Source: Candidatus Altiarchaeota archaeon (GTDB taxonomy: Archaea > Altiarchaeota > Altiarchaeia > IMC4 > SCGC-AAA252-I15). Taken from it: a stretch of DNA of 64,000 nt. Positions 14,194-48,614 of this stretch are shown one piece after another. The stretch is taken from assembly GCA_043800705.1 (NCBI GenBank), contig JAZDMS010000040.1, positions 5,550-69,549 on the forward strand. The letters are read 5' to 3'. A model generated the notes under the pieces. The model did not search any database and was not told where the DNA came from. It saw only the letters and a program-made list of their open reading frames with translations. The number at the start of each line of letters is the position of its first letter. The first letter of the stretch is position 1. The position numbers and the translations under genes are program-made.

Positions 14194-15704
14194 TCGTCCT
14201 CGACTTCGGAGGCCAGTACTGCCACCTCATAGCACGGAGGATAAGGGAGCTTGGAGTCTACTCCGAGGTCATGGCCTCCGACACGTCCGCAAAGGAACTC
14301 AAGGCAACGGGCGGCCTCAAGGGTGTCATCCTCTCCGGCGGAGCCGCATCCGTCTACGACGCAGGCAGCCCGAAATACTCCCCTGACCTACTCGAAGCCG
14401 GAGTCCCGATACTCGGCATCTGCTACGGCCACCAGCTGATAGCGCACATTGCGGGCGGATCCGTCGAAGGCGGGAAGGCCGGAGAATACGGGCTCACGGA
14501 GCTCGCAGTCATGAAGGCGGAAGGCATCCTGAAGGGGGTCAACGGCCGCACGCCGGTCTGGATGAACCACCGCGACGTAGTGACCAAACTCCCGCCCGCG
14601 TACAAGGTCCTGGCCACAACCGCGAACACGCCTGTTGCGGCGTTCGGCAACCCTAAACAGAACATTCACGGCGTCCAATTCCACCCCGAGGTGACCCACA
14701 CCCGCGAGGGGATGAGCATACTCGAGAACTTCGTCGAGATATGCGGCGCAAGCCGCGACTGGAGCATGAAGGACTTCACCGTCAACTCCGTAGAGGAGGC
14801 GAAGTCGGTCATCGGCGGAAGGAGGGCGATCATCGGCCTGTCCGGCGGAGTCGACTCGTCGGCCGCTGCGGTCCTCCTGTCACGGGCCATCGGCGACAGG
14901 CTCACGGCGGTCTACGTCGACACCGGCCTCATGCGCTACCGAGAGACCGAGTTCATGGAAGAGACCTTCTCGGGCAGGGAGATGGACTTCAGGATCGTCA
15001 GGGCCGCCGACAGGTTCTTCGCGGCATTGAAGGGCGTCACCGACCCCGAGCAGAAGAGGAAGATTATCGGGGGCCTGTTCGTAGACATATTCGAGGAGGA
15101 AGCCGTGAAAGTCGGCGCCGAAGTCCTCGTCCAAGGCACGATATACTCGGACCGGATAGAGTCCGGGGTCACCAAGCACTCGGACAACATCAAAAGCCAC
15201 CACAACGTCGGCGGACTCAAGGAGAAGATGAAGCTGGAAGTCTACGAGCCGCTCCGGGACCTGTACAAGGACGAGGTCCGCGAGATCGCAAGGCAGCTGA
15301 AGCTCCCGGAGAAGATAATCACAAGGCACGTGTTCCCCGGCCCCGGCCTCGCCATAAGGATCATCGGAGAAGTCAACCCGAAGACGGCGGACATATGCAG
15401 GAAGGCGGGCAACATCGTCGAGGAGGAGCTGAAGAAGGCGGGAATCTACGAAAAATACTGGATGGGGTTCGCGGTCCTTCTGCCGATAAAGAGCGTCGGC
15501 ATCCAGGGCGACTGCCGAAGCTACAAGCACCCCGTCGTCGTGCGCATAATCGAGTCGAAGGACGCCATGACCGCCAACTTCAGCAAGGTCCCCTACGAGG
15601 TGTTGGAGTCCATATCGACGAGGATAACGAACGAGATAGCCGACATCAACAGGGTCGTCTACGACATAACCAACAAGCCCCCAGCGACCATGGAATGGGA
15701 GTGA
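14181..15704 (+). CDS. guaA: GMP synthase (glutamine-hydrolysing), fused GATase plus ATP-PPase
   Basis: 507 aa with GICYGHQL and HPE (GATase), the GLSGGVDSSAAA P-loop, and the C-terminal ...NRVVYDITNKPPATMEWE. Confidence 0.92.
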   Translation: MEKIVVLDFGGQYCHLIARRIRELGVYSEVMASDTSAKELKATGGLKGVILSGGAASVYDAGSPKYSPDLLEAGVPILGICYGHQLIAHIAGGSVEGGKAGEYGLTELAVMKAEGILKGVNGRTPVWMNHRDVVTKLPPAYKVLATTANTPVAAFGNPKQNIHGVQFHPEVTHTREGMSILENFVEICGASRDWSMKDFTVNSVEEAKSVIGGRRAIIGLSGGVDSSAAAVLLSRAIGDRLTAVYVDTGLMRYRETEFMEETFSGREMDFRIVRAADRFFAALKGVTDPEQKRKIIGGLFVDIFEEEAVKVGAEVLVQGTIYSDRIESGVTKHSDNIKSHHNVGGLKEKMKLEVYEPLRDLYKDEVREIARQLKLPEKIITRHVFPGPGLAIRIIGEVNPKTADICRKAGNIVEEELKKAGIYEKYWMGFAVLLPIKSVGIQGDCRSYKHPVVVRIIESKDAMTANFSKVPYEVLESISTRITNEIADINRVVYDITNKPPATMEWE

Positions 15705-15717
15705 CGGCGGTCCAAAC

Positions 15718-16458
15718 CTACAATACGACACTCTCTTGGCCGCTGACCCATCTGGCTATCTCCTGCGGGCTCGCATGTTCTATCTGGTGCATCCTGACGT
15801 CCGCCGCCGACTTGAGAAGCTGGAACAGGATTAGAAGCAGGGTCGGGCCTGCCATGCTCAGATAGTCCGCCGTGCTCCCCAGTCCAACGAGATACAAGCC
15901 CATGGACAGAAAGATCCCGCCGACGTAGATAAAACCCGAGGCGATTATGGTCAGGTGCATGGGCAAAATCCTGGCGAACGGGATTGCAGCCACGACCCCT
16001 ATGTTCAACCTTTTTGAGCTATCCTCCCTGACATTGTGTATGTAGGAGAATCCGTGGTTGACGAGGAATATTGCCACGGCCAGGAGCATCCACGGAATCT
16101 CCCCCGACAGGATCCGGTATCCCATATCACTCAAGGCAAAGAGCAGGAATACGGCGTAGGCGGCATGGAAAAATCCGAATCCGATAATAAAAATGACGGT
16201 CACCCAGGCTTTCACGGCCGATGAAGGGGTCAACGGCAGGCCGTTTATCTCCACCCCTTCGGTGGAATAATCCCCGAGGCTGAGCATCCTAAGTAGGCTG
16301 AATAGCCCGATGATGAGGCTCTGGCACCAGTAAACCCACAGGACCGTCATCAGGTTCCAACCCTCCAAGACAGCCAGCAGAATCACGAACAGATTAGAGG
16401 CTGCAAGCGACACTGCCGAAGGATCAGACCATGCACTCTTCGCCGCCGCCTCAGGCAT
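15718..16458 (-). CDS. Polytopic membrane protein (DUF6498-like)
   Basis: 246 aa with 6-7 hydrophobic segments. The family call is from memory only. Confidence 0.5.
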   Translation of the reverse strand: MPEAAAKSAWSDPSAVSLAASNLFVILLAVLEGWNLMTVLWVYWCQSLIIGLFSLLRMLSLGDYSTEGVEINGLPLTPSSAVKAWVTVIFIIGFGFFHAAYAVFLLFALSDMGYRILSGEIPWMLLAVAIFLVNHGFSYIHNVREDSSKRLNIGVVAAIPFARILPMHLTIIASGFIYVGGIFLSMGLYLVGLGSTADYLSMAGPTLLLILFQLLKSAADVRMHQIEHASPQEIARWVSGQESVVL

Positions 16459-16510: not shown

Positions 16511-16606
16511 ATGAGAATCCGCGACATCGGCGGCGAATTCACGCTAATCAACCGACTCGTATACGACATAACCAATAAACCCCCCGCGACCATGGGGTGG
16601 GCGTGA
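16511..16606 (+). pseudogene. Chimeric relic ORF: thiL 5' end fused to guaA 3' end
   Basis: MRIRDIGGEFTLINR|LVYDITNKPPATMGWA*. The first half parallels thiL (MKIKDIGGEFALINRV at 20148) and the second half parallels the guaA end (NRVVYDITNKPPATMEWE* at 15704). Confidence 0.75.
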
Positions 16607-20147: not shown

Positions 20148-21092
20148 ATGAAAATCAAGGACATAGGCGGCGAGTTCGCCCTCATCAACAGGGTTGCTCG
20201 GCCTGGCGGGGCGGTCGTCGGAGTAGGCGACGACGCGGCGGTCCTGAAGTATACGAAGGAGCGGTATCAGCTTTTCACGACCGACATGCTCTGCGACGGC
20301 GATCATTTCCGCCGCGACTGGGCCAGCCCCGAACAGATAGGGATGAAGGCGATGGAGGTCAACGTCTCAGACATCGCAGCAATGGGCGGCCTCCCCACAT
20401 ACGCTGTCATCTCAATATCACTGACACATGACACGTCGGTCGAGTTCATGGACCGCCTCTACAAAGGCTTGTACCACGTCGCCGACAAATACGACCTCAA
20501 CATCGTCGGCGGAGACACCACGCACGCGGACATGATGGTCATAAACGTCTCAATGCTCGGAGAAGTGGAAAAGGACAGATTATGCCTGCGCTCAGACGCG
20601 AAGGTCGGCGACCTCATATGCGTCACAGGCGACCTCGGAAAAAGCGCCGCAGGCCTCGAACTTTTGAAGGGGGGAATGCGCGGCGAGCTCACAGCGTATC
20701 TGGAGCCGAAATGCAGGCTAAAGGAGGCCAGGAAAATCTCACACTATGCAAACGCGATGATAGACGTCTCCGACGGCCTGGCAAGCGAAGTCAACCACAT
20801 CTGCCATATGAGCAAGGTCGGGGGCCTCGTGAGAAAGGAGGACATACCCATATCCAAATCCACTATCGAATCCGCGCATAAGGTCGGCAAAGACCCGTAC
20901 GATTACGCATTGAACGGGGGGGAAGACTTCGAGCTCGTGTTCACCGTCCCTCAAGCGTACCTGGGGAAGGTGGCGCACATAGATTGCCCGGTCACTGTCG
21001 TCGGAGAGATAGTGGAGAAAAGGCAGGGTTTGACGATTGAGTCGTGCGGCAGGAAAAAGCCCCTGAAGGGAGGATACGACCACTTCAAGTAG
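20148..21092 (+). CDS. thiL: Thiamine-monophosphate kinase
   Basis: MKIKDIGGEFALINRV..GDDAAVL.....TTDML..G.HF... has the AIR-synthase-like fold pattern. Start chosen at the second ATG, supported by the relic copy at 16511. Confidence 0.85.
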   Translation: MKIKDIGGEFALINRVARPGGAVVGVGDDAAVLKYTKERYQLFTTDMLCDGDHFRRDWASPEQIGMKAMEVNVSDIAAMGGLPTYAVISISLTHDTSVEFMDRLYKGLYHVADKYDLNIVGGDTTHADMMVINVSMLGEVEKDRLCLRSDAKVGDLICVTGDLGKSAAGLELLKGGMRGELTAYLEPKCRLKEARKISHYANAMIDVSDGLASEVNHICHMSKVGGLVRKEDIPISKSTIESAHKVGKDPYDYALNGGEDFELVFTVPQAYLGKVAHIDCPVTVVGEIVEKRQGLTIESCGRKKPLKGGYDHFK

Positions 21093-22674
21093 GTGTTTGG
21101 TTGAAGCGGAAAACCGCCATGGCCGGATATTCTCCCATTTCCACGCGCTCGTATTCGACGCTGTCCTTCATCATTTTCTCCAGTGTGGCGATGTCGACCT
21201 GATTTTTCGGAGCTAAACCGGATTCTAACGACACGTAAGCCGGATCATACGATCTTAACAGAGCCAGTCCGCCCTCAGGTTTCCACTCCCAATTCCTCAG
21301 GATGATTTGATCGCATTTTGCGCCATTTCGGAACCGGAAAAGGGCTGAATAATACTTTGCCTCCTGAGCCCGATAATCGTATCCGAAGATCTCGACAATC
21401 CTCATAGTACCGTTCGCCTGAAGGCCGCAGGCTTTCTCCATGAATCCCATAAGCTGCTCTTTATCGCTGTCGTGCGTCTGCAGCCCATTGAGGAAGGCTG
21501 TCCCGTCAGGTTTCCCCGCCAAACTGAAAGCCCACGAATCCACAAGGAGCAACTGTAATGTTAGGAGCGCTAAGGCGGCAAGCGCGAAAGTTCTCGCATA
21601 CTTGTCTGCCCGGCTTAAAATCCAACAGGAAACGACTGCGAAATATGGAAGTAGTGGGAGTAGGAATCTCGGGAACTCGTTGGTGGAAAAGGAAAAGACC
21701 AGATAAAACAGGATTATCTGAAAAATCGAGGCCATCAAATATATGTCCCACGATTTGAATCCCTTTTTCACCGTGATCCATGCGAGAGCAAAAGGGGCGA
21801 AGATGAACATTGCGATCGTGAAGCCTGTTGTCAGGTTCACCCCCGATATCCCGGCCAATATCTGGAGCTTGCTGATGACATCCGCCCTATGCCCCCATCG
21901 GGGGGATGTTGCGGAAGAAACCGCGTGGCCCCAGGCCGGGCCGATGTGTAAATAGAACCAGGCGGACGCCGACGCCGCCAAAACCAAGGCTGCGAACGCC
22001 AAGAGCGGGTTCAACTTCGCGAAGCCAAAGCCTTTCCCTCGGATTCTGGCCAACACTAGGGCCGCGGGCCCGATGCAGTAAAGGGGGGAGGACAGTTTCG
22101 AGAGGGCTCCTATGGATGCGGCTGCCAAAATGCTTGCAAGGATCGTTGCCTTGTCCATGGAGGCTGCACGGACCATAATCCTCATGAACAGGGTCACCGA
22201 CAGGAGGACGAAGACGTCAGAGTAATACTGCCCCGACATTGCGACGAATATCGGCGCGGCAGCGATAACGGCGCAGCCCGCAAGGGAGATGAGACGGTTG
22301 AAGTACATGGACTTCAGCGTTCCAAACATGATCCCAAGGGTCAGAACCTGCACAAGGAAGACCGGCAGCCGAAGGCCGAACTCCATCGATTTCGTCAACA
22401 ATCCAAGCGGGACGAAAAACTGCCCGACCCAAATCATCAAAGGCGGCTTATATGGGGATATTTGAAAAACCAAAGACAGCCAATTTTTGGGGTTGCTTTT
22501 TAGCTCCGAATAGAGCCTCAAAGACTCTTCGGCGTAGTCGAGGCAGTCGCCACTCGGAAGTTTGGCGTCTAGGGCTATCCACACCAGACTCGGAGCCGCA
22601 AGAAGCAGGATGAAAAGGACAGCATATGTGTCCCCTCCTGCACGGAGACTTTTCAGCCGAGATTCCGGCAGCAT
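21085..22674 (-). CDS. Dolichyl-phosphate-dependent glycosyltransferase (ArnT/PMT-like, GT-C fold)
   Basis: About 12 TM helices plus a C-terminal soluble domain. Start moved to MLPESRLKSL so that the AT-rich tract at 22680-22720 is intergenic. The start is uncertain (alternatives at 22728 or 22878). Confidence 0.55.
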   Translation of the reverse strand: MLPESRLKSLRAGGDTYAVLFILLLAAPSLVWIALDAKLPSGDCLDYAEESLRLYSELKSNPKNWLSLVFQISPYKPPLMIWVGQFFVPLGLLTKSMEFGLRLPVFLVQVLTLGIMFGTLKSMYFNRLISLAGCAVIAAAPIFVAMSGQYYSDVFVLLSVTLFMRIMVRAASMDKATILASILAAASIGALSKLSSPLYCIGPAALVLARIRGKGFGFAKLNPLLAFAALVLAASASAWFYLHIGPAWGHAVSSATSPRWGHRADVISKLQILAGISGVNLTTGFTIAMFIFAPFALAWITVKKGFKSWDIYLMASIFQIILFYLVFSFSTNEFPRFLLPLLPYFAVVSCWILSRADKYARTFALAALALLTLQLLLVDSWAFSLAGKPDGTAFLNGLQTHDSDKEQLMGFMEKACGLQANGTMRIVEIFGYDYRAQEAKYYSALFRFRNGAKCDQIILRNWEWKPEGGLALLRSYDPAYVSLESGLAPKNQVDIATLEKMMKDSVEYERVEMGEYPAMAVFRFNQTPT

Positions 22675-22771
22675 CCAAGGTAATCTATTTTCGATGAATA
22701 ATAATCGTTTTAAAAATGCCAGCCTCATGGCAATTCCACCGATTATATACTCCTTCGACAAATATCCCTTT

Positions 22772-23497
22772 ATGGTAGTGAACATCGTCGTGACCGGCAA
22801 GGTCCCTGACAATCCAACCATCATCGAAGCGTTCCCGAGCAGGGGATACGTCAGCACCATAGCAGGCAACCACCTCATCCGCCAGGAGAAGATGGAACAG
22901 ATCGGCTACATAGAGTCCGACAAGCTCGACGCCATCGCAGTCGTCCACGACGGCAAGCCCATGCACCCCATACGGATATACTCGAAGGGCGACCTGGTCG
23001 TCCTGTTCTCCGAGCTGATAATCCCCCTCAACCTCACACACGAGTTCAGCACCGAAGTCATAAACTGGTTCAAGAAGATCAAGCCGAAGAAGGCGATCCT
23101 CCTGGCAAGCATCCCCGGGGTCGAGACCAGCAAGGAGCATGAGATATTGGCCGTGTCCACCGACGGGCAGATGATCGAGAAGATCAAGGCGTTGAAGATC
23201 AAGCAGATGAACGAGGGCGTCCTCACCGGGATGAGCTCGAGCCTGATGATAAAATGCTGCTGCTTAGAAATACCAGTCACGTCTCTGATGGTGGAGACGA
23301 CCTACATACCCGACGTGCTCGCGGCGGCGAGCCTCATGAAGATGCTAAGCGACATCCTCGGCCTTACCGTCAGCATAGAGGAGCTAACGAAGGCGGGCCA
23401 CGACATCGAGGAGAAGTTCCGCGAAAACCTCGAACAGATGAAGATCGGCCAGGAAAACTTCAAAGAGATGCACCAACAATTGCCAATGTACAGATAG
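22772..23497 (+). CDS. PAC2-family (proteasome assembly chaperone-like) protein
   Basis: ..IIEAFPSRGYVSTIAGNHLI....IGYIES......V.V..G....PIRIY...DLVVLFSE..IP... is a typical PAC2/COG1938 layout. The start is uncertain (22727 or 22772). Confidence 0.65.
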   Translation: MVVNIVVTGKVPDNPTIIEAFPSRGYVSTIAGNHLIRQEKMEQIGYIESDKLDAIAVVHDGKPMHPIRIYSKGDLVVLFSELIIPLNLTHEFSTEVINWFKKIKPKKAILLASIPGVETSKEHEILAVSTDGQMIEKIKALKIKQMNEGVLTGMSSSLMIKCCCLEIPVTSLMVETTYIPDVLAAASLMKMLSDILGLTVSIEELTKAGHDIEEKFRENLEQMKIGQENFKEMHQQLPMYR

Positions 23498-23637
23498 CGG
23501 TCTTCCGTCTATCGCCCTGGCAAACGGTCCCGTCTTGGGCCTTGTTTGCGGCATGGGCTTGTTGCGGCGTCAGCCATCCATCAGAGAGACTGAGGCCTGA
23601 GGCCGAATGTCTCTCATTCGCCGGCCTTAGAAGGCCG

Positions 23638-23685
23638 CAGGAGAACTTCAAGGAAATGCACCAGCAGCTGCCGATGTACCGCTGA
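23638..23685 (+). pseudogene. Relic second copy of the last 15 codons plus stop of the PAC2-family gene
   Basis: QENFKEMHQQLPMYR* is encoded again 143 bp downstream of the live stop. There are 11 nt differences, all synonymous or stop-for-stop. Confidence 0.7.
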
Positions 23686-23742
23686 CCCCATGAACCGGCC
23701 GGGGCGCTGTCTTTATTTTCCTGTCCTCGTCGAATATGTATT

Positions 23743-24624
23743 ATGGCCTCCGAAGACAACCAACAAAAACTTACCCCCTTGCGGGAAACATCATCCCCCG
23801 CCTTGCCGCTGACAATGGGGCCCCTTGAGGCGACAAGCCTGTATTTCCGGGATGTCATGATGCGGATTGACTCCCTAAAGCTTAGGCATGAGGTTCTGAA
23901 GCTCGGTGAAGTCACCCACTCCCACAAGACCTACCCCCTGTATGCGATAAAATCTGGAAGCCGTATGCCGGATGCCCCGAATGTCATAATCTGCGCGGGC
24001 ATCCACGGGGATGAAAAGGCAGGGGTGCAGGCGGCGCTGGACTTCATGGAACAACACCATTCCCCATACTCCGGCAGGCTCAATTTCACCGTCATCCCCT
24101 GCATGAACCCATCGGGCTTCGAGGCAACGACCCGGGCATCAGCGTCTGGCACCGACATAAACCGCGACTTTGGCGAATCAAGCAGAACCCAGGAGGCCAC
24201 ATTGGTTCGCAGGTTCATAGAGGGAGAAAGCGCGAAATTCGTCCTCGGATGCACCCTGCATGAGGATAACAGCGAACTATCAGCCGGAGGCCGCCCATTG
24301 ACCGACAACCCCGATGGATTCTACCTGTACGAGTACCGGTCTAACGCATCAGGGAGCCTTGGCAGGGGAATTCTCGCGGATCTGGAGGGAAAAGGGGTCA
24401 GCGTCTACAAGAAGCCGATGATATACTCGGAAAAAAATGACCACGGCATGGTCCTCGAGGTAGGGCCCATGGACCCCAAGAGGCCGGATTCAGCCTCATT
24501 TGAGAACTTTCTCCGAAGGTGCGCAGCCTGTGTCATAAACACCGAGACACCAACCTCGTGGTCATGGGACTCAAGGGTCAAAGCGCAAATCCTCGGGATA
24601 AAGTCGGCCTTAGACCGACAATAG
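23743..24624 (+). CDS. M14-type zinc carboxypeptidase / succinylglutamate desuccinylase-aspartoacylase family protein
   Basis: ICAGIHGDEKAG (HxxE zinc site), ..NPSGF.., LH.D. Confidence 0.6.
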   Translation: MASEDNQQKLTPLRETSSPALPLTMGPLEATSLYFRDVMMRIDSLKLRHEVLKLGEVTHSHKTYPLYAIKSGSRMPDAPNVIICAGIHGDEKAGVQAALDFMEQHHSPYSGRLNFTVIPCMNPSGFEATTRASASGTDINRDFGESSRTQEATLVRRFIEGESAKFVLGCTLHEDNSELSAGGRPLTDNPDGFYLYEYRSNASGSLGRGILADLEGKGVSVYKKPMIYSEKNDHGMVLEVGPMDPKRPDSASFENFLRRCAACVINTETPTSWSWDSRVKAQILGIKSALDRQ

Positions 24625-25631: not shown

Positions 25632-25831
25632 GTGGCGGACATCCGGAAGTGGCTTCTTGGATCGACGCGCAGGTGGCTCCGGCGCGGTTCTCGCCCCCGC
25701 ACCCCCACAAGCACAGTCCACTGAAGTTATGGCTGCTGCCTTCCGGCCCTGACCAGATTCCTAAAATAGACCATCCAGTGAGACGAAGGCTCACGGTTCC
25801 GCACCGGACCCGCACGGCAACCCAAGACTCG

Positions 25832-25901
25832 CCTCCCGGCATTCAGCCCCGCCTAAGACGATTTGCGGCAACAGGCTACGCCTACCAGCCCGGCCTAGTC
25901 C
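25832..25901 (+). repeat. 70-bp direct repeat, copy 1
   Basis: CCTCCCGGCATTCAGCCCCGCCTAAGACGATTTGCGGCAACAGGCTACGCCTACCAGCCCGGCCTAGTCC matches 65/70 positions of the copy at 27402. Confidence 0.85.
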
Positions 25902-25979
25902 ACCGGTCAATGTATACGCAAAATCAGATTAAAAAACCAACCTCTCTCGCTCTTATACCTGGAAAATAATTTTTGTATT

Positions 25980-27374
25980 ATGTCCCCCATTATTCGTGTT
26001 CTCTTCGGCAAATCGAAAGGAAGATTTTTTCTGTTCATGCTATCCCTGCTGTCTGCTTTTATCGTTGTCGGCCAAGCGTCAGCCACCGAAGTCATTGTTG
26101 TCGGCAGGGAGCCGGCCACCAAGGTCATTCTTGTCGGCGGGGCGTCAGACAGGGAGCTTAAGGACTGCTGGGATAGCGGATACGCGCCCGAAAGGGTCTC
26201 ATGCTATGCGAGGTATGCTTTCGAAATGGACGATCCCGGAATATGCGATCAAAGCCCCTATCATAGGTTTGACCGGGATCCATGTTTTAAGCTCTTAACA
26301 ACGTCCTTGAAAAACAACACTCCGTGCGCAAGCATGAGGCGCGGGAATTCCCAAGCATTGTGCTATCGGATCATGTCCGTCTCAGACGACGGCGCACTCG
26401 CAGCATCGGTCCTCGGCAATTTCTCGGCCCCTGAAGACTGCGGTGTAGATTGCATGTCCCGCATCGCCGTTTTGATGCAAATGCCGGAAATCTGCAATAC
26501 GATGATGTTCAGTCGCGATTCCTGTTTTGCTGAAGTCGCGATTAGGCTAAACGATTCTGGCGTGTGCGAAAGGATGCTAGGAAACAGGGGTCGTTGCTAT
26601 TCCGCGATGGCTATGAGGCTCGGTAACATTTCATTCTGCGACAAGATTGAAACGCCTGACCTAAGGCTCGGCTGCCAGATTGAAATGGCTGTGTGGGCCG
26701 GTGACGCGTCAATCTGCCCTAAGGTCGCTGGCATTAACGTCTCCCGCGGCGACGAATGCTTCATGAAGCTTGCATTGGGGCTGGGGGACGCCTCCTTATG
26801 CGGTAACATATCCTTACATCCCGGGGGAAAATTCCTTAAGAATGATGCTAGCAGGGACAACTGCTTCGAGGAGGTTGCCTTGAGGCTGAGGAACGAATCC
26901 GTCTGCAAGAACATCGAAGGCGAGAAAGATTGGTGCATTGCAAGAATAGCAAAGGACTATGCCATGTGCGAGAATTTAGAGGGCCCATGCCAGGTATACG
27001 TCTGCATGTCCCGTTTGGATGGGGTGAAAATATCCAATCCGGCTCCCAGCGATTGCGAGATCTATCGCACCCCCCGGGCCATAGTCACCGTAACCTACAA
27101 CATCAGGATTTTATTACTGGTCATAAGCATATTCGTAGCGGCTCTATATTGTCTTGCACAAACCGCGAAAGAGTTGATTTCGTCCCGGAAGGCGGATAGA
27201 AGACCGGATATCAAAGCCTTGGCAAAGAAAATGATCCTGTTCGTCCTGATTTTGGCGGCATTAAACATCCTCGCCTATGCCTACGTATCCATCTATCTCG
27301 CATATGAGCCTCCGACGACCGCCGCCGCAAAATTCAGCGAAATGAAATTTTTTATGGAGGGAGGAGCAATTTGA
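25980..27374 (+). CDS. Secreted, C-terminally anchored protein built of about 10 tandem Cys-pair modules
   Basis: Signal/TM at the N-terminus and two TM helices at the C-terminus. The modules look like C[FY]xxhAhxLxDxShCxxh (e.g. CFAEVAIRLNDSGVCERM, CFEEVALRLRNESVCKNI, CFMKLALGLGDASLCGNI). Confidence 0.6.
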   Translation: MSPIIRVLFGKSKGRFFLFMLSLLSAFIVVGQASATEVIVVGREPATKVILVGGASDRELKDCWDSGYAPERVSCYARYAFEMDDPGICDQSPYHRFDRDPCFKLLTTSLKNNTPCASMRRGNSQALCYRIMSVSDDGALAASVLGNFSAPEDCGVDCMSRIAVLMQMPEICNTMMFSRDSCFAEVAIRLNDSGVCERMLGNRGRCYSAMAMRLGNISFCDKIETPDLRLGCQIEMAVWAGDASICPKVAGINVSRGDECFMKLALGLGDASLCGNISLHPGGKFLKNDASRDNCFEEVALRLRNESVCKNIEGEKDWCIARIAKDYAMCENLEGPCQVYVCMSRLDGVKISNPAPSDCEIYRTPRAIVTVTYNIRILLLVISIFVAALYCLAQTAKELISSRKADRRPDIKALAKKMILFVLILAALNILAYAYVSIYLAYEPPTTAAAKFSEMKFFMEGGAI

Positions 27375-27401
27375 CTGATACCACGGACGAGACAAAGCGT
27401 C

Positions 27402-27471
27402 CTCCCGGCACTCAGCCCCGCCTAAGACGATTTGCGGCGGCAGGCTGCGCCTGCCAGCCCGGCCTAGTCCG
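27402..27471 (+). repeat. 70-bp direct repeat, copy 2
   Basis: It has five transition differences from copy 1 and lies exactly 1570 bp downstream. It contains a perfect hairpin GGCAGGC-TGC-GCCTGCC that copy 1 lacks. Confidence 0.85.
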
Positions 27472-33232: not shown

Positions 33233-35389
33233 ATGAAGTACAGCATGGATTATTCAAGGATTTTATCAGCCATATTTTTTGTTGCCGTCCTCTTGACCGC
33301 CATACCCCCGGCTAGCGCAGCCACCGGCATAGACGACATGGAAGTCAGCGTGCCCAATTCGATTGACACAGGCGGTAACTTCGACGTCTTCGTCAAATTC
33401 ACGGCCGCAGACGACGAGAACAACGCCGACGTCGACGTCGGAATAACAGTCGACGGAGTCCTCGTGCATCAGAAGGTCAGGTCCATCGACCTTGTCGACG
33501 GGCGCAGCTACAACTTCACAATCAACTCGAACGACTTCGAGCTGGAAGAGGACGACCTCGGCAGGGTCTGGTCCGAGAACCTCATGAACTACAGATGCGG
33601 TGACAACCTGGATGTCGAAGTGACCCTCTCCGGAGACATTGAAGACACGGTCGAATCAGACAAAATCGACATCAACGGCGACGACGGAGAATTGTCAGTG
33701 TCCCTCGACCCAGAGCTGCCAGCAATCGACGAGAAGTTCATCGTGGCGGTCATAGACGAGGACGACGACGAACTGAACGGCGCATCCGTCAAACTTACCT
33801 GGACGGACTACAACAGCGGGATAGACGACGCCACATGGGACGTCGACGACAAATCCAAGATCAAGACGACGGACTCCGACGGAGAGGCCGACTTCAAGAT
33901 ATCGAATGACATGGGCAAGAGCGCATACGGCAACTACCAGATAGACGTCACAAAGGCCGACTACTGCAAAGAGACCCTGACTATGTCGGTCCTCAACGGC
34001 CTCAACATGAGCGGCCCGACGCCGGCCAACCCGAAGGCGGGCGAGCAGTTCAGGGTCAACGTCACCTCCCTCTCGGGGAAGGCTGCAATAGGCCTCATCG
34101 TGACCCTCACGCCAGGAAACGTGAAGAGCCAGGTCCTTCAGGACGGGACAGCCCCGTTCACGATAGCATCGCCCGGGTCATACACGCTCATAGTCGGCGG
34201 CGGAACCACCGGGTATGACGAGGTGATGAAGACCGTCCAGGTCTCGACGAAGTCACAGCTGACGATCGACTTCTCCTCCGCGATGCCGCCTGTCGGCAAG
34301 GAGATGACCCTAACGGTCACGGCAAATGACGCCCCCGTTGAAGGCGCGACGGTCAAGGTCACTCCGCAGGGCGGCACCGAGCAGACCGTGGGGACGACCT
34401 CAAAGGACGGCACCGTAAAATACACCCCCGCCACATCTGTAAGCTACACGGTGAAGGCCTCAAAGACCACATACGACGAGGCTACCGACACGTTCACCTC
34501 AAAGGGGACCTTCCAGATAGAGCTCCCCCCGGCATCCGACCTCAAGAAGGGCAGCCAGGTGACGGTGACAGTCAAGGACGCATCAGGCAACCCCGTCCCG
34601 GCAGCCACGGTCTACGCAGGCCCAGGGATCACAGGACCCACGGACACGTCCGGCAAATACACGTTCACGCTGCCTGACGTCGGAACATACACGATCTCCG
34701 TCACAAAGGCCGGATACTCGGACGGAACGGCGACCCTCAGCACCACCGGCCAGCTGTCCGTCAAAGTCGACAAGAAGGAGATAGCCCTCGGAGACTCGGT
34801 AAAGATAACCGTCATGAATTCTAACGGGCAGCCTGTCGAATCATCCCTGGATATAACCGGCCCGTCCGTAGGCGACACGAAAACCGCATCGGAATACTCC
34901 TACACCCCGACCAAAGCCGGAGACTACCAGGTGCGGGCGTCCAAGGCCAGCTACGGCTCATCATCCGACACCTTCAAGGTATTGTCCAAGACGGTCACAG
35001 TGACCTACATGTTCCAGGAGGACAAACTATACGTCAACGTGACAAGCGGCGGCAGGCCCCAACAGGGCGTACCCCTGACTGTCACCCTAGGTAACGCATC
35101 ACTGAAGGCGTCGACTGACTCCACAGGCATGGCGAGCGTGCCGGCGAACGAGACAGGCGAATACGTTATCGCAGTCGCAGGCCCCGACTATACGGGAGCC
35201 CCGGTGACGGCGCTGAAATCAACGACGGCGATAATCTCCGATCTGTGGGTGCCAGTCCTCATAGTGCTGGTCGTACTCGTGCTGATCGGCATATTCGCAG
35301 TCGTCGCAATCAGCCTGATGCAGCGGCGCGGAGGCGGCTCGAAGCCCACATTCAAACGCCGCTCCGACGGGACCCACCTGGGACGTTAG
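33233..35389 (+). CDS. Large acidic surface protein with repeated Ig-like beta domains and a C-terminal TM anchor
   Basis: Signal MKYSMDYSRILSAIFFVAVLLTAIPPASA. Repeated units (..V.V....G.P..GATV......T..DG...YT....G.Y...A.K..Y..), a C-terminal TM plus RRGGGSK tail. Same architecture as the upstream gene. Confidence 0.6.
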   Translation: MKYSMDYSRILSAIFFVAVLLTAIPPASAATGIDDMEVSVPNSIDTGGNFDVFVKFTAADDENNADVDVGITVDGVLVHQKVRSIDLVDGRSYNFTINSNDFELEEDDLGRVWSENLMNYRCGDNLDVEVTLSGDIEDTVESDKIDINGDDGELSVSLDPELPAIDEKFIVAVIDEDDDELNGASVKLTWTDYNSGIDDATWDVDDKSKIKTTDSDGEADFKISNDMGKSAYGNYQIDVTKADYCKETLTMSVLNGLNMSGPTPANPKAGEQFRVNVTSLSGKAAIGLIVTLTPGNVKSQVLQDGTAPFTIASPGSYTLIVGGGTTGYDEVMKTVQVSTKSQLTIDFSSAMPPVGKEMTLTVTANDAPVEGATVKVTPQGGTEQTVGTTSKDGTVKYTPATSVSYTVKASKTTYDEATDTFTSKGTFQIELPPASDLKKGSQVTVTVKDASGNPVPAATVYAGPGITGPTDTSGKYTFTLPDVGTYTISVTKAGYSDGTATLSTTGQLSVKVDKKEIALGDSVKITVMNSNGQPVESSLDITGPSVGDTKTASEYSYTPTKAGDYQVRASKASYGSSSDTFKVLSKTVTVTYMFQEDKLYVNVTSGGRPQQGVPLTVTLGNASLKASTDSTGMASVPANETGEYVIAVAGPDYTGAPVTALKSTTAIISDLWVPVLIVLVVLVLIGIFAVVAISLMQRRGGGSKPTFKRRSDGTHLGR

Positions 35390-35487
35390 CGGTCTTCGGT
35401 TCTCGGTTCTCGGTTTTCCGTCAAGACTGAAAACTGAGAACTGAAAACTGAAAACTGAAAACTGCAGACAGGAAACCGCAGACCGTG
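35390..35487 (+). repeat. Heptad-periodic long hairpin element, copy 1 (possible 3'UTR/terminator structure)
   Basis: (CGGTTCT)2 CGGTTTT CCG-tcaaga-CT GAAAACT GAGAACT (GAAAACT)3 starts 1 nt after the TAG stop. The arms pair with one G-T (G-U) per heptad. Confidence 0.7.
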
Positions 35488-37400: not shown

Positions 37401-37457
37401 AAAGAAACATATTCGGTTGATATGTGCATGTTTGTCCATCAGCAGCTACCCTTGTCG
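37401..37457. repeat. 57-bp direct repeat, copy 1 (period 90 bp)
   Basis: AAAGAAACATATTCGGTTGATATGTGCATGTTTGTCCATCAGCAGCTACCCTTGTCG matches 54/57 positions of the copy at 37491. Confidence 0.9.
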
Positions 37458-37486
37458 CAAACTTTTCTTTTGTAAAGAAAAGTTTG
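37458..37486. other. Perfect 13-bp AT-rich hairpin between the two 57-bp repeats
   Basis: CAAACTTTTCTTT-tgt-AAAGAAAAGTTTG. Confidence 0.85.
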
Positions 37487-37490
37487 ACCA

Positions 37491-37547
37491 AAAGAAACAT
37501 ATTCGGTTGATATATGCATATCTGTCCATCAGCAGCTACCCTTGTCG
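37491..37547. repeat. 57-bp direct repeat, copy 2
   Basis: It has three substitutions relative to copy 1 and overlaps the 3' half of the C/D sRNA candidate on the minus strand. Confidence 0.9.
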
Positions 37548-39982: not shown

Positions 39983-41254
39983 TCAAACCCCATTTTTCGG
40001 TTTTTTCACGGTCTTTTCGGCCTTTTTCCCGGATCCTCCGTTTTCGAGGTTGTATCTGACCACCTTCTCCTTGAAATCCATTATCGCCGCGTGGTAGTTG
40101 AGGCCCGCGTCGAACGGGTTGCCGTGGTGGCTGAAGTACTCGTGGACGGAGCCGTCGCCCATCCCCTTCGTGCACATGTAGTAATAGTGGTCGCTTATCT
40201 GGAACATCTTCCACACCTTCATCATCTCCGGGTTCTTGGAGGCCCTCACGTCGTTTTCCATCTCCTTCAGCCTGGAGAAGTTCAAATGCTGCATGTGGTT
40301 GCCGAGCCATGCGCTGGCGTCCCGCTCCATGTCAGCCCAGCTGACTGTCTCATACCAGGGGACCGTGATCTCCCCCCTCGGATAATACCTGTCCGCGACC
40401 TCGCTCGGCGTGTTGAACTCCAGGTTCTGCTTCTCCAGTATCTTATGCGGCATCGCATCCAGGAAGTGGAATATGCCAGTGTCCTCCCACTGGTGTTCGC
40501 CGAAGGTCTCATAGTCCATGAAGATGTTGATCGTGTCCTCGGCCGACCAGCTCAGCCAGTCCGCATACTTCTCCGCGGAAAGCGGCCAACCCGGCCACCA
40601 CTTCGCGCTGAAACGGTATCCGACGTCGTCGGAGAGCTTGTAATTCCTCAAAAGGACCTTCAGCTTCCCCCCCTTCCTCGTATAGACGAAATTAGGGCTT
40701 CTCCACCCGTCCAAGACCCTCTCGATCCCCTCGGTGAGTATGGCCTTGAACCCCATCTCCTCAGCCTCCTTCGCGATCGTGTCGTGGTACAGGAGCTCCG
40801 TGTTCCTGAACACCTTCGGCTTCTGGCCGAGGTAGTCCTTCACCATCTGCTGGTGCTCCAATACCTGCTCCCTGAACTCCTCCCTCTGCTCGAAGAGGCT
40901 CGCCAAGGAATGGTACCTGGTCTCGTTGATGAACTCGCAGCAGCCGGACTTCCCCAACTGCCTGAAAAGGTCCAAAAGGTCCGGCTCCCACCTCTCCATC
41001 TGCTCTAAAATGGAACCGGAAAGCGAATACGAGACCTTGAACTTCCTGTTCTGGCCTTTGAGGCGGTCGATGTTGGCCATGATGTTCTTCGTCGCAGGCC
41101 AATAACACTTCTTCGCCACCTTATGCAAAGTCCACTCATTGAGGCCGTTGTCGAAATAATAGTCCTCTAGGCCGTTCTTCGGGACCCCATTCGGCCAGAA
41201 CCACTTCAGACGAAACGGCTGGTGGACTTGAAAATATAAGCAGACGGATGTCAT
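39983..41254 (-). CDS. Glycoside hydrolase family 57 protein (alpha-amylase/glucanotransferase type)
   Basis: N-terminal MTSVCLYFQVHQPFRLKWF.., ..FMDYETFGEHQWE.. (catalytic region pattern), ..W.GN..Q. Confidence 0.8.
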   Translation of the reverse strand: MTSVCLYFQVHQPFRLKWFWPNGVPKNGLEDYYFDNGLNEWTLHKVAKKCYWPATKNIMANIDRLKGQNRKFKVSYSLSGSILEQMERWEPDLLDLFRQLGKSGCCEFINETRYHSLASLFEQREEFREQVLEHQQMVKDYLGQKPKVFRNTELLYHDTIAKEAEEMGFKAILTEGIERVLDGWRSPNFVYTRKGGKLKVLLRNYKLSDDVGYRFSAKWWPGWPLSAEKYADWLSWSAEDTINIFMDYETFGEHQWEDTGIFHFLDAMPHKILEKQNLEFNTPSEVADRYYPRGEITVPWYETVSWADMERDASAWLGNHMQHLNFSRLKEMENDVRASKNPEMMKVWKMFQISDHYYYMCTKGMGDGSVHEYFSHHGNPFDAGLNYHAAIMDFKEKVVRYNLENGGSGKKAEKTVKKPKNGV

Positions 41255-41394
41255 ATCACTCCCCCCGCTTTATTCGGCCCCTCTTTCTTTTTCGCCAGCG
41301 TTTTTCTTTCTGGGAGAGAAAGAAAAAGGCTGGGCTTGAACCACTTCAACCTGAACGGCTGATGGACTTGAAAGTATAGGCAGACTGAAGTCAT
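41251..41394 (-). CDS. 47-codon upstream ORF whose first 19 codons duplicate the GH57 N-terminus; its stop overlaps the GH57 start
   Basis: MTSVCLYFQVHQPFRLKWFKPSLFLSLPERKTLAKKKEGPNKAGGVI*. The TGA overlaps the ATG at 41254 (ATGA). It contains a perfect 10-bp hairpin at 41301-41327. Confidence 0.4.
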   Translation of the reverse strand: MTSVCLYFQVHQPFRLKWFKPSLFLSLPERKTLAKKKEGPNKAGGVI

Positions 41395-41559
41395 AACACA
41401 ACCCCCTCACGGCCTAGATGACAGATGCTGAACGAATATATCACCAATACACCCCCTAAAAATTCCCCCTAAAAACGACTGTAGAATCATTAGGCGGACG
41501 GATATAAAAGGAGAAGATTGCTTTTCGGCAGTTTTACGCCTATTGGGCCTTGTAGGCTT

Positions 41560-46702: not shown

Positions 46703-47311
46703 ATGGACGACTTCATGAAGAGGAACCGCAGGTTCAGGGACGGATTCGAGGATTTCATGGGCGACGACTTCTTCGCCGAGTTCGAGGGGGAGTTCCGGAG
46801 GATGCAGGATCACATGAGCCACCTCTTCGACGAGGCGCTGAGGAACAACGAGACGGACCATGTCAGGAGGTACGTCTACGGCTTCACGATGCATACCGGC
46901 CCCGACGGGAAGCCGGTCCTGGAGGAGTTCGGCAACGTCCCCAGGCACGGCGAGGACCAGATACCCGGCGAGAGGGAGCCGATGGTCGACGTCATAGACG
47001 GCAGGGACGAGGTCACCGTCATCGCGGAGCTGCCCGGAGTCGACAAGAAGAACATAGACCTTAAGTCGGACGAGACGTCGCTGACGATATCAGTCCGCGA
47101 CCACGCCCGAAGGTACCACAAGGTCCTGGATATGCCGGGGGAGGTCGACCCCGAATCAATAAAGGCCCAGTACAAGAACGGCATACTCGAAGTCAAGCTG
47201 AAGAAGGCCAGGAAGAAGAACGGATCCAAGAGGATAAAGAACGGCATACTCGAAGTCAAGCTGAAGAAGGCCAGGAAGAAGAACGGAACCAAGAGGATAA
47301 AGGTCGAATAG
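46703..47311 (+). CDS. hsp20: Hsp20/alpha-crystallin small heat-shock protein with duplicated C-terminal strand
   Basis: ACD pattern: VDVIDGRDEVTVIAELPGVDKKNIDLKSDETSLTISV......Y.KVLDMPGEVDPESIKAQYKNGILEVKL. Confidence 0.85.
   Translation: MDDFMKRNRRFRDGFEDFMGDDFFAEFEGEFRRMQDHMSHLFDEALRNNETDHVRRYVYGFTMHTGPDGKPVLEEFGNVPRHGEDQIPGEREPMVDVIDGRDEVTVIAELPGVDKKNIDLKSDETSLTISVRDHARRYHKVLDMPGEVDPESIKAQYKNGILEVKLKKARKKNGSKRIKNGILEVKLKKARKKNGTKRIKVE
47177..47302 (+). repeat. Perfect-frame 63-bp tandem duplication inside hsp20 (2 x 21 codons)
   Basis: NGILEVKLKKARKKNG(S/T)KRIK is encoded twice. There is one nt difference (TCC/ACC) in 63. Confidence 0.95.
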
Positions 47312-47772: not shown

Positions 47773-47810
47773 TTGCAGTCACCTGTCTACGGTCTTGGGT
47801 CATGTTGGGT

Positions 47811-47890
47811 GTCTTCGGTTTTCGGTTTTCGGTTTTCCGTTTTCCGTCAAGACTGGAAACTGAGAACTGGAAACTGGGGACTGCGGACCG
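47811..47890 (+). repeat. Heptad-periodic long hairpin element, copy 2
   Basis: CTT (CGGTTTT)3 CCGTTTT CCG-tcaaga-CTG GAAACTG AGAACTG GAAACTG GGGACTG. It shares the core GGTTTTCCGTCAAGACTG.AAACTGAGAACTG with copy 1 and lies between convergent gene ends. Confidence 0.7.
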
Positions 47891-47894
47891 GGGA

Positions 47895-48614
47895 CTATTT
47901 TAGTTTCCGCGCTACGGTCAGGAATCCCGTATGTCCGAGCATTCGCGTGTCAGGGGACATCTTGTCTGCCTTCCAGTCCCTTAGCATGGTCTCAAAGGTC
48001 TCATGGAGCCAGGTGGTGCCCAGCACCTCCACCAGTTGCCTGTTCTGGTTGATGCTCGGCGAGTATGATACGAGTATCCCCCCGACTTTCAGGGCCCCCT
48101 CCAGTTTAGGCACTACGCGCCATGGTTCCGTCAGGTCCAAAAACACGGCGTCGAGGCCCTTCTCGTCTATCCCGTTGTATGTGTCCCTCAGCTCGAGACG
48201 GACGTTCTTGGCGCCGAACCTCTCGAAGTTCTTCTTCGCTATCTGCGCGAAGTCCTCCCTCAACTCGTAGGTGACTACTGTTTCAGGATGCACGATGTGG
48301 CTCAGATAAAGCGTGAAGAGGCCGGAGCCGGTTCCGGACTCGAAGACCCTGCTGCCTGAGCGGATGCCGGAATAGGCGACTGCGAGGCCCATGTCCTTCA
48401 GGGTCATCGCCTGCGGGCCGCGTCGGGCTTTGGAGATGTAATCTAGGATGTTCGGCTCCAGGACCGCGAATTTTATCCCAGTATTAGATTCCAGCACCGC
48501 CCCCGGCTGGGCGGCTGCGATGGCGTCAGCCTTCACGACCCCGTATTTGGTATGGAGGTCGTTTCCGTCGTTGACCAGGTACCTGTCGCCTTTGGAGTCT
48601 ATGAGCAGACGCAT
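47895..48614 (-). CDS. trmI: tRNA (adenine-N1-)-methyltransferase TrmI/Gcd14 family
   Basis: MRLLIDSKGDRYLV.. N-terminal beta domain, FESGTGSGLFTLYL SAM motif, D.VFLDL..PW. Start chosen so that the AT-rich tract at 48615-48678 is intergenic. Confidence 0.75.
   Translation of the reverse strand: MRLLIDSKGDRYLVNDGNDLHTKYGVVKADAIAAAQPGAVLESNTGIKFAVLEPNILDYISKARRGPQAMTLKDMGLAVAYSGIRSGSRVFESGTGSGLFTLYLSHIVHPETVVTYELREDFAQIAKKNFERFGAKNVRLELRDTYNGIDEKGLDAVFLDLTEPWRVVPKLEGALKVGGILVSYSPSINQNRQLVEVLGTTWLHETFETMLRDWKADKMSPDTRMLGHTGFLTVARKLK

Follow-up and report, generated by a model that had tools for sequence, protein, structure and literature searches.

A second end of a PAC2-family gene in an Altiarchaeota archaeon, the probable scar of an in-register insertion

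The stretch of 64,000 nucleotides from an Altiarchaeota archaeon analysed here (the window; overall GC content 56%) carries a PAC2-family gene, coding for a proteasome assembly chaperone, whose 3' end is present twice. The last 15 codons and the stop of this gene recur downstream of its stop codon, in another frame and with the same amino acids written in partly different codons. We consider it reasonably probable (approximately 0.62) that this arrangement is a non-functional recombination scar, which formed when a foreign gene tail, its stop codon and 140 nt of adjoining DNA were inserted in register. The elements concerned, referred to below as the live tail, the spacer and the relic, are:

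22772-23497, + strand: live PAC2-family gene (PF09754; 241 amino acids), ending in MYR and then TAG
23450-23497, + strand: live tail, the last 15 codons plus TAG (CAGGAAAACTTCAAAGAGATGCACCAACAATTGCCAATGTACAGATAG), with rare, A/T-ending codons; putative incoming (xenologous) copy
23498-23637: spacer, unique and non-coding; putative foreign 3' flank that arrived with the live tail
23638-23685, + strand: relic tail, the same 15 codons plus TGA (CAGGAGAACTTCAAGGAAATGCACCAGCAGCTGCCGATGTACCGCTGA), out of frame with PAC2; putative displaced native end

Both tails translate to QENFKEMHQQLPMYR followed by a stop. A first-pass annotation of this DNA had reported 11 nucleotide differences between them without any amino acid change, and this is confirmed: nine differences lie in eight sense codons, all of them synonymous, and two in the stop codon (TAG versus TGA), which amounts to a divergence of 23% over the 48-nt repeat. 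It had also placed the relic out of frame with the live gene, correctly so (coordinate modulo 3 of 2 for the live tail and 1 for the relic). The spacer proper measures 140 nt, or 143 nt if the TAG is included. Beyond either edge the similarity between the tails breaks off abruptly. No identical block is longer than 8 nt (AACTTCAA and ATGCACCA), and at the inner edge the identity extends over no more than the 5 nt CAGGA. GGCC, a candidate microhomology, precedes both tails at an offset of 2 nt.

Not one of 300,000 simulated sets of 11 random substitutions left both peptide and stop intact. The silent sites of the two tails are saturated, as distant as those of orthologues from other genera: 8 of the 13 codons that could be compared for the same amino acid differ, versus a fraction of 0.40-0.51 between the PAC2 gene of the window and its orthologues (60-68% amino acid identity). 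For a duplicate that arose in situ and left a neutral relic, we estimate that approximately 40% of the changed codons would be silent; the observed 8 out of 8 has a p of ca. 7e-4. Both a chance origin and the neutral decay of a local duplicate are thus excluded. The restriction to silent differences, together with a silent distance at the level of genera, implies that both tails evolved as working gene ends before they were joined, or that both are still under selection.

The protein in question is well defined. In a Pfam search it matches PF09754 over residues 18-218 with 128.9 bits (cutoff 25.8; E = 3e-37), and those of its 56 homologues with a named source all belong to Altiarchaeota, the closest being 72% identical. 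JGI sample 3300075153 contains PAC2 relatives of 72% and 69% identity as well as a GH57 relative of 85%. Its C-terminus, M-Y-R in both tails, is of the HbYX (hydrophobic-Tyr-X) type. Among 30 homologues neither M239 nor Y240 varies, and the conservation of R241 reaches at least 90%. The role of a C-terminal HbYX motif is established for the archaeal PbaA/PbaB proteins, and for this PAC2 protein the motif is predicted to dock on the proteasome and to be essential. The invariance of M239 and Y240 means that loss of the tail by any cut would inactivate the protein. A tblastn search with 57 homologues returned the relic as the only other PAC2 fragment.

Which of the two tails is native was judged from the codon usage and from the neighbouring genes, in comparison with related Altiarchaeota loci (labelled in the style L001-L026). 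The flanking genes are:

23743-24624, + strand: M14/AstE-like peptidase gene (Pfam), apparently the ancestral 3' neighbour of PAC2 in this sub-lineage
21085-22728, - strand: PMT_2-type glycosyltransferase gene (Pfam), lineage-specific, between ThiL and PAC2

The GC content at third codon positions (GC3) is 0.83 for the PAC2 gene, 0.93 for the relic and 0.60 for the live tail. The codon choice of the live tail ranks among the lowest 1.6% when synonymous encodings are sampled from the usage of the window, and that of the relic is typical, which bears out the earlier description of the relic as rich in GC-ending, typical codons and of the live tail as rich in A/T-ending ones. Along the gene, GC3 is 0.81-1.0 in most 48-nt windows up to position 23443 and falls only in the tail. 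As a whole the gene does not depart from its neighbours, a possibility that the first-pass annotation had raised, since its GC3 is typical of core genes. The synteny points in the same direction as the codons. In L011 (PAC2 identity 68%) the genes follow each other as ThiL-PAC2-M14-Sec61beta, and M14 starts 39 nt after the PAC2 stop; in the window 57 nt separate the TGA of the relic from the M14 start, similar to the spacing of the single PAC2 end in L011, and a TATA-like CTTTATTTT is present in between, at 23711-23719. Over the 11 sites where the tails differ, the six nearest GC-rich relatives (L001, L002, L004, L011, L013 and L014) agree with the relic 36 times and with the live tail 17 times, a weak preference because the shared GC bias confounds it. 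The comparison with orthologues that had been proposed thus favours the relic as native, if weakly; these orthologues are too distant to reveal a lineage affinity of either tail. None of the 21 orthologous loci that carry the 3' flank possesses a second PAC2 tail. Given the position in front of M14, the PAC2-like codons and the sites of the relatives, the downstream copy can most plausibly be taken for the native gene end that was displaced. At the other side of the gene, ThiL and the convergent PMT_2 gene overlap at their stops by 8 nt (21085-21092).

An insertion would account for these observations as follows. The ancestral locus would have consisted of PAC2 with its native tail, TGA, approximately 40-60 nt and the M14 peptidase gene. 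A piece of 188 bp from a diverged relative or an element, comprising its own working copy of the final 15 codons of PAC2, TAG and 140 nt of 3' flank, would have been attached to PAC2 in register, at codon Q227. PAC2 would now be finished by the incoming tail, thereby keeping the HbYX motif that docks on the proteasome, whereas the native tail would have moved 188 nt downstream, out of frame, lacking a start codon of its own and untranslated, as a relic too young to have decayed. The differences would all be silent because each tail evolved under selection at the protein level as the real gene end in a separate lineage, and a join in register implies guidance, either by homology or by an attachment (att) site that mimics the gene. 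One candidate mechanism is site-specific integration of the att type, comparable to that of element e14 in icd, by an element that was later almost entirely deleted or that was non-autonomous. The other is repair or transformation guided by homology to a homeologous template, the far end being closed by a microhomology join, akin to homology-facilitated illegitimate recombination (HFIR) or synthesis-dependent strand annealing. The first-pass annotation had likewise suggested an insertion that displaced the resident gene end, and this core idea has the best support. The duplicate with its sharp edges, the silent pattern, the position and native-like codons of the relic and the lack of a second tail in 21 relatives are observed, whereas the foreign origin of the live tail and spacer, for which no donor was found, and the manner of joining are what we infer.

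Gene-end replacement at insertion is a known kind of event, and the PAC2 scar belongs to it. Element e14, like phage 21, integrates in the 3' end of icd of Escherichia coli (K-12) and leaves the icdC pseudogene (PMC13626634). This case was measured for comparison: between icdC and the final 165 nt of icd, which e14 supplies, there are 12 differing positions, corresponding to nine silent codons and two D/E exchanges, and the repeat has a sharp inner edge. In both systems an incoming copy completes the gene in frame with its own end, the native end persists as a promoterless fragment beyond the insert, the inner repeat edge is sharp, and the differences are nearly all synonymous (for PAC2, all eight differing sense codons are silent). 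However, e14 is 15.2 kb long and carries an integrase and an excisionase, whereas the PAC2 copies are parted by 140 non-coding nt; the repeat of e14 is 165 nt long with 7% divergence, that of PAC2 48 nt with 23%; and the genes examined in the window include no recombinase, with an identical block at the inner edge of merely 5 nt. Occurrence of the same site in empty and occupied form, or on a virus or plasmid, as for e14-type elements, was not found: all 21 loci are single-tailed, and the viral contigs and GTDB genomes gave no match.

For HFIR, one homologous side and 3-10 bp of microhomology at the other side have been described (de Vries & Wackernagel, 2002; Prudhomme et al., 2002; both as summarised in PMC6382021). 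Such an event would yield a new end in register with foreign flank and could leave the resident end in place. It does not depend on a dedicated mobile element, in keeping with the tiny cargo at PAC2, and it also fits the small inserts and the ATCAAC junction of a further duplicate in the window, the guaA/ThiL case described below. It has, however, been described in naturally transformable bacteria with near-identical anchors, whereas the PAC2 donor would be approximately 20% diverged and the boundary of the anchor is not visible. We know of no DNA uptake in Altiarchaeota. A third class of comparison is formed by non-autonomous remnants, such as elements resembling cis-mobilizable elements (CIMEs), degraded att-flanked islands and tycheposon remnants, which carry partial copies resembling attL and attR and little or no cargo, and have no integrase. 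CIME-like and tycheposon remnants usually target tRNA or tmRNA genes and have an identical core of at least 15 nt, whereas the targets here are the ends of protein genes and the signal recognition particle (SRP) RNA, with identical blocks of just 5-10 nt. An attachment site of the tRNA type was rejected, the window containing no tRNA or tmRNA gene. The SRP RNA gene is itself a documented integration target: phage phiEf11 attaches within ffs and duplicates a segment of it (PMC12540744). This bears on the SRP RNA copies at 25832-25901 and 27401-27470, although phiEf11 is a bacterial system, a full prophage whose identical core measures 27 nt.

The spacer contains a terminator-like hairpin followed by a T-rich run at 23526-23551 and two further hairpins at 23584-23615 and 23620-23638; the fold of the whole spacer is not unusual (z-score -1.2), and its 3' half has a z-score of -2.85. 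An Rfam search, even at E values up to 10, assigned it to no family. The first-pass annotation had linked the start of the spacer to the region behind the surface-protein gene at 35387 through the 11-mer TAGCGGTCTTC. This 11-mer does recur there, but a third copy lies within the H+-pyrophosphatase coding sequence (4669). Exact matches in other parts of the window exist for nine distinct spacer 11-mers (E of ca. 1.7 each), so that the link is attributable to chance. A supposed resemblance to 47790-47815 comes down to a single match of 13 out of 15 positions, at chance level (p of ca. 0.03, uncorrected for 12 comparisons); the motif GTCTTGGGYCWTGTT occurs in the window only at 23532 and 47792. 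The search for further copies that had been recommended yielded none, be it in the window, among 25 related loci, in viral contigs or among GTDB representative genomes. A blastn-short search with 23495-23640 against the window and 23 loci returned only chance matches of 10-13 nt, which leads us to reject the spacer as a repeated or mobile element, and exact scans of viral contigs and GTDB genomes for the spacer gave no matches. A tandem duplication of the tail with its flank was rejected as well, as the spacer is related neither to the DNA after the relic nor to that before the live tail (p of 0.06-0.92).

Several points weigh against a foreign insertion. Neither a donor lineage nor another copy of the spacer came to light, nor did an integrase; a Pfam scan of 22 proteins of the window revealed no recombinase domain, no open reading frame (ORF) with a coding signal lies between the tails, and the tail pattern had no matches in viral contigs or GTDB genomes. 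As an att core, the identical CAGGA of the inner edge would be short, and homologous recombination with a donor that is approximately 20% diverged is very inefficient. The identification of the relic as native, based on synteny and codon usage, is to be read with the shared GC bias in mind, which confounds the latter, and with 72% protein identity the closest PAC2 orthologue is itself distant. Moreover, in the SRP RNA duplicate the live copy, not the fragment, is nearer to L011, so that equating the relic with the native copy does not hold universally in this stretch of DNA.

Part of this pattern could also be produced by a larger exchange, in which the entire PAC2 gene, possibly with PMT_2, was replaced by that of a diverged donor together with a 140-nt flank, leaving the last 16 codons of the resident behind. 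PMT_2 is missing at the ThiL-PAC2 position in L011, L013, L015 and L020, which indicates that the upstream side has been remodelled too, and HFIR-type events swap the resident DNA between the homologous anchor and the microhomology join (PMC6382021). A replaced gene is, however, difficult to reconcile with a GC3 that remains high as far as 23443, its decrease being confined to the tail. Furthermore, PMT_2 has a GC3 of 0.64, unlike PAC2, and does not look like one block with it, the identity rankings of ThiL and PAC2 against the relatives agree, and neither a relic of the PAC2 head nor one of the ThiL tail is present beside PMT_2. We therefore regard replacement of the whole gene as unlikely. 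An origin as an assembly artefact, i.e., a chimeric join of two strains or species that co-occur in the metagenome, we hold to be barely credible. It is true that the contig is metagenomic and that four duplicates of this kind in 64 kb are unusually many, but the longest exact word common to the tails is 8 nt, so that no de Bruijn path links them. A false join at 23637/23638 would, in addition, need the end of the spacer to precede the PAC2 tail of the second genome, which is the same arrangement, and the gene order on both sides fits a single syntenic backbone.

The remaining explanation is a duplication in situ whose second tail is functional, with both copies under selection. This could act through a -1 frameshift isoform with an insert of ca. 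60 amino acids and the same HbYX end, through a TTG-initiated HbYX peptide of 47 amino acids, or as regulatory DNA of M14. The frame of the relic (ORF 23254-23685, + strand) is open over the whole spacer, the differences between the tails are all silent, and the relic of the GH57 gene, a further duplicate in the window, likewise opens a 47-amino acid ORF whose TGA overlaps the real ATG. However, the same openness across 143 nt is found in 24% of shuffled sequences, and the GC contents at the three codon positions of this ORF are 0.68/0.53/0.47, compared to 0.50/0.31/0.83 for PAC2, a non-coding periodicity (GC3 of 0.47 versus 0.61-0.84 for genes) that comes with no Pfam family. The antisense ORF 23460-23927 (- strand) lacks coding periodicity, too (0.48/0.58/0.60). 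An overlapping gene containing the relic was rejected on these grounds. Inspection of the sequence between 23440 and 23497 revealed no canonical slippery heptamer, for which reason a programmed frameshift into the relic was also discarded. The arrangement is conserved in no relative, and a regulatory role would not keep coding potential intact across 48 nt. Altogether a functional second tail is, in our view, quite improbable. The first-pass annotation had named the same arrangement in all relatives, or a real overlapping gene around the second tail, as findings that would overturn an insertion; no relative shares the arrangement, and no credible overlapping gene was found. A diversity-generating retroelement was rejected as well, the differences running in both directions (A/G, G/A, T/C, A/C) with an unchanged protein; a Pfam scan of the neighbour proteins gave no reverse transcriptase domain. 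A bulge-helix-bulge intron was judged implausible by reasoning, without a scan, since direct repeats cannot give in-register pairing of exon and intron.

The PAC2 locus is not the only one of its kind. A scan for nearby repeated peptides and a repeat finder brought further duplicates of gene ends to light, so that there are four in the 64-kb window and one in a distant Altiarchaeota relative (L019); none were found in the other relatives examined. Gene-end duplicates thus recur unusually often in this stretch of the genome. Those of the window, in addition to PAC2, are:

41193-41266, - strand: GH57 live copy, the ribosome-binding region and first 19-20 codons of gene 39983-41254
41333-41406, - strand: GH57 relic, a second version of the ribosome-binding region and of 19 codons (MTSVCLYFQVHQPFRLKWF), lying 140 nt upstream
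15645-15704, + strand: live tail of guaA (INRVVYDITNKPPATMEWE and then stop)
16511-16606, + strand: guaA/ThiL relic, an ORF of 31 codons in which the ThiL head (MRIRDIGGEFTLINR) and guaA tail (LVYDITNKPPATMGWA and then stop) are fused at ATCAAC
20148-20192: third segment of the guaA/ThiL case
25633-25905, - strand: live SRP RNA gene (Rfam RF01857, 132 bits), with a syntenic SRP RNA in L011
27401-27470, - strand: 70-nt duplicate, 93% identical, of nt 5-74 of the SRP RNA, on the far side of the inserted gene 25980-27374

The GH57 case concerns the 5' end of the gene. Its copies show nine differences in 57 coding nt, all silent, and are separated by a spacer of 66 nt with a perfect 11-bp hairpin (TTTTTCTTTCT/AGAAAGAAAAA). 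The live head, the relic head and the orthologue in L026 are pairwise approximately 80% identical, which makes the relic head as distant as another genus. The ORF opened by the relic spans 41251-41394, its TGA overlapping the real start codon as ATGA.

In L011, L002, L020 and L004 the stop of guaA overlaps or abuts the start of ThiL (TAATG or ATGA), whereas in the window the two genes are parted by five accessory genes, coding for a DUF6498 protein, a Yip1-like protein, a methyltransferase, a polysaccharide deacetylase and a 198-amino acid ORF. The fused relic sits between the DUF6498 gene (15718-16458, - strand) and the Yip1-like gene. Amino acid changes occur in 6 of the 15 codons that differ between the copies, and the case is compatible with a local duplication of 96 nt between two ATCAAC motifs that subsequently decayed.

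The SRP RNA fragment is separated from the live gene by a gene for a Cys-rich protein of 464 amino acids without a Pfam family (25980-27374). Three of the five differences between the copies lie in a helix (G.U to G-C), one in the loop of that helix and one further 3'; the live copy is closer than the fragment to the SRP RNA of L011. In L019, a 73-nt segment from the 5' part of a gene is repeated (643-715 and 1958-2030; 95% identical) across two small minus-strand genes. From our own reading of the sequences, made without a family search, the duplicated gene has an N-terminus that looks like SepCysS, and the two small genes look like a RelE-type toxin and its antitoxin. L019 is a low-GC relative, and a frameshifted trace of NPIQ is present upstream of its distal copy. 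Duplicates flanking the PMT_2 insertion were looked for, and none were found; gene-end duplicates thus appear only where an insertion hit inside conserved genes or at the overlap of such genes.

By itself, the PAC2 scar is a small curiosity: a docking motif survived an insertion since the incoming DNA would have brought its own copy. Its added interest lies in its minimal size, in the lack of a recombinase and in the fact that several conserved genes, one of them an RNA gene, show such duplicates. This recurrence, at the 3' end of PAC2, the 5' end of GH57, the guaA/ThiL overlap and the 5' end of the SRP RNA, is the more useful point. In most cases the differences are neutral for function; the exception is guaA/ThiL, where amino acids have changed and which may be a local duplication. 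Relics of this type may serve as dated and directional markers of DNA exchange among deeply diverged, uncultivated archaea, and they may show the route by which accessory genes (the DUF6498 gene, the 464-amino acid secreted protein, the toxin-antitoxin pair) enter tight operons. A genome-wide census of relics could gauge gene flow in the phylum without genetics and reveal any dedicated family of elements, and the PAC2 gene of the donor should be recognisable by an end in CAACAATTGCCAATGTACAGATAG followed by the sequence of the spacer. A more speculative thought, to which we attach little likelihood, is that this lineage uses a recurrent, recombinase-independent way of gaining DNA in a very compact backbone of overlapping genes, in which small cassettes or homeologous fragments carry a working end of a conserved neighbour gene as homing arm, insert in register and leave the native end in place. 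If true, the inserts of 188 bp at PAC2 and 140 bp at GH57 would not be one-off scars but minimal members of a new class of mobile DNA that mimics gene ends.

A few other repeats and structures were observed in the window. Two long stable hairpins are present on the + strand at 35389-35480 and 47811-47898 (z-scores -5.2 and -5.6), built of heptads (CGGTTYT)n and (ACTGRRA)n. They contain G.U pairs on the + strand only and lie directly 3' of + strand genes, and they may act at the RNA level as terminators or stabilisers. At 37401-37547, between a DUF998 gene and a glycosyltransferase gene, a sequence of 57 nt is repeated at a spacing of 90 nt with 95% identity, and at 47174-47299 a coding region on the + strand contains a near-perfect in-frame tandem duplication of 63 nt (beginning with KNGILEVKLKKARKKNG). 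Finally, 939-2136 contains two tandem paralogues of approximately 182 amino acids with 57% protein identity (over 179 residues) and 71% nucleotide identity (over 300 nt), whose N-terminus, as we read it without a family search, suggests a helix-turn-helix.

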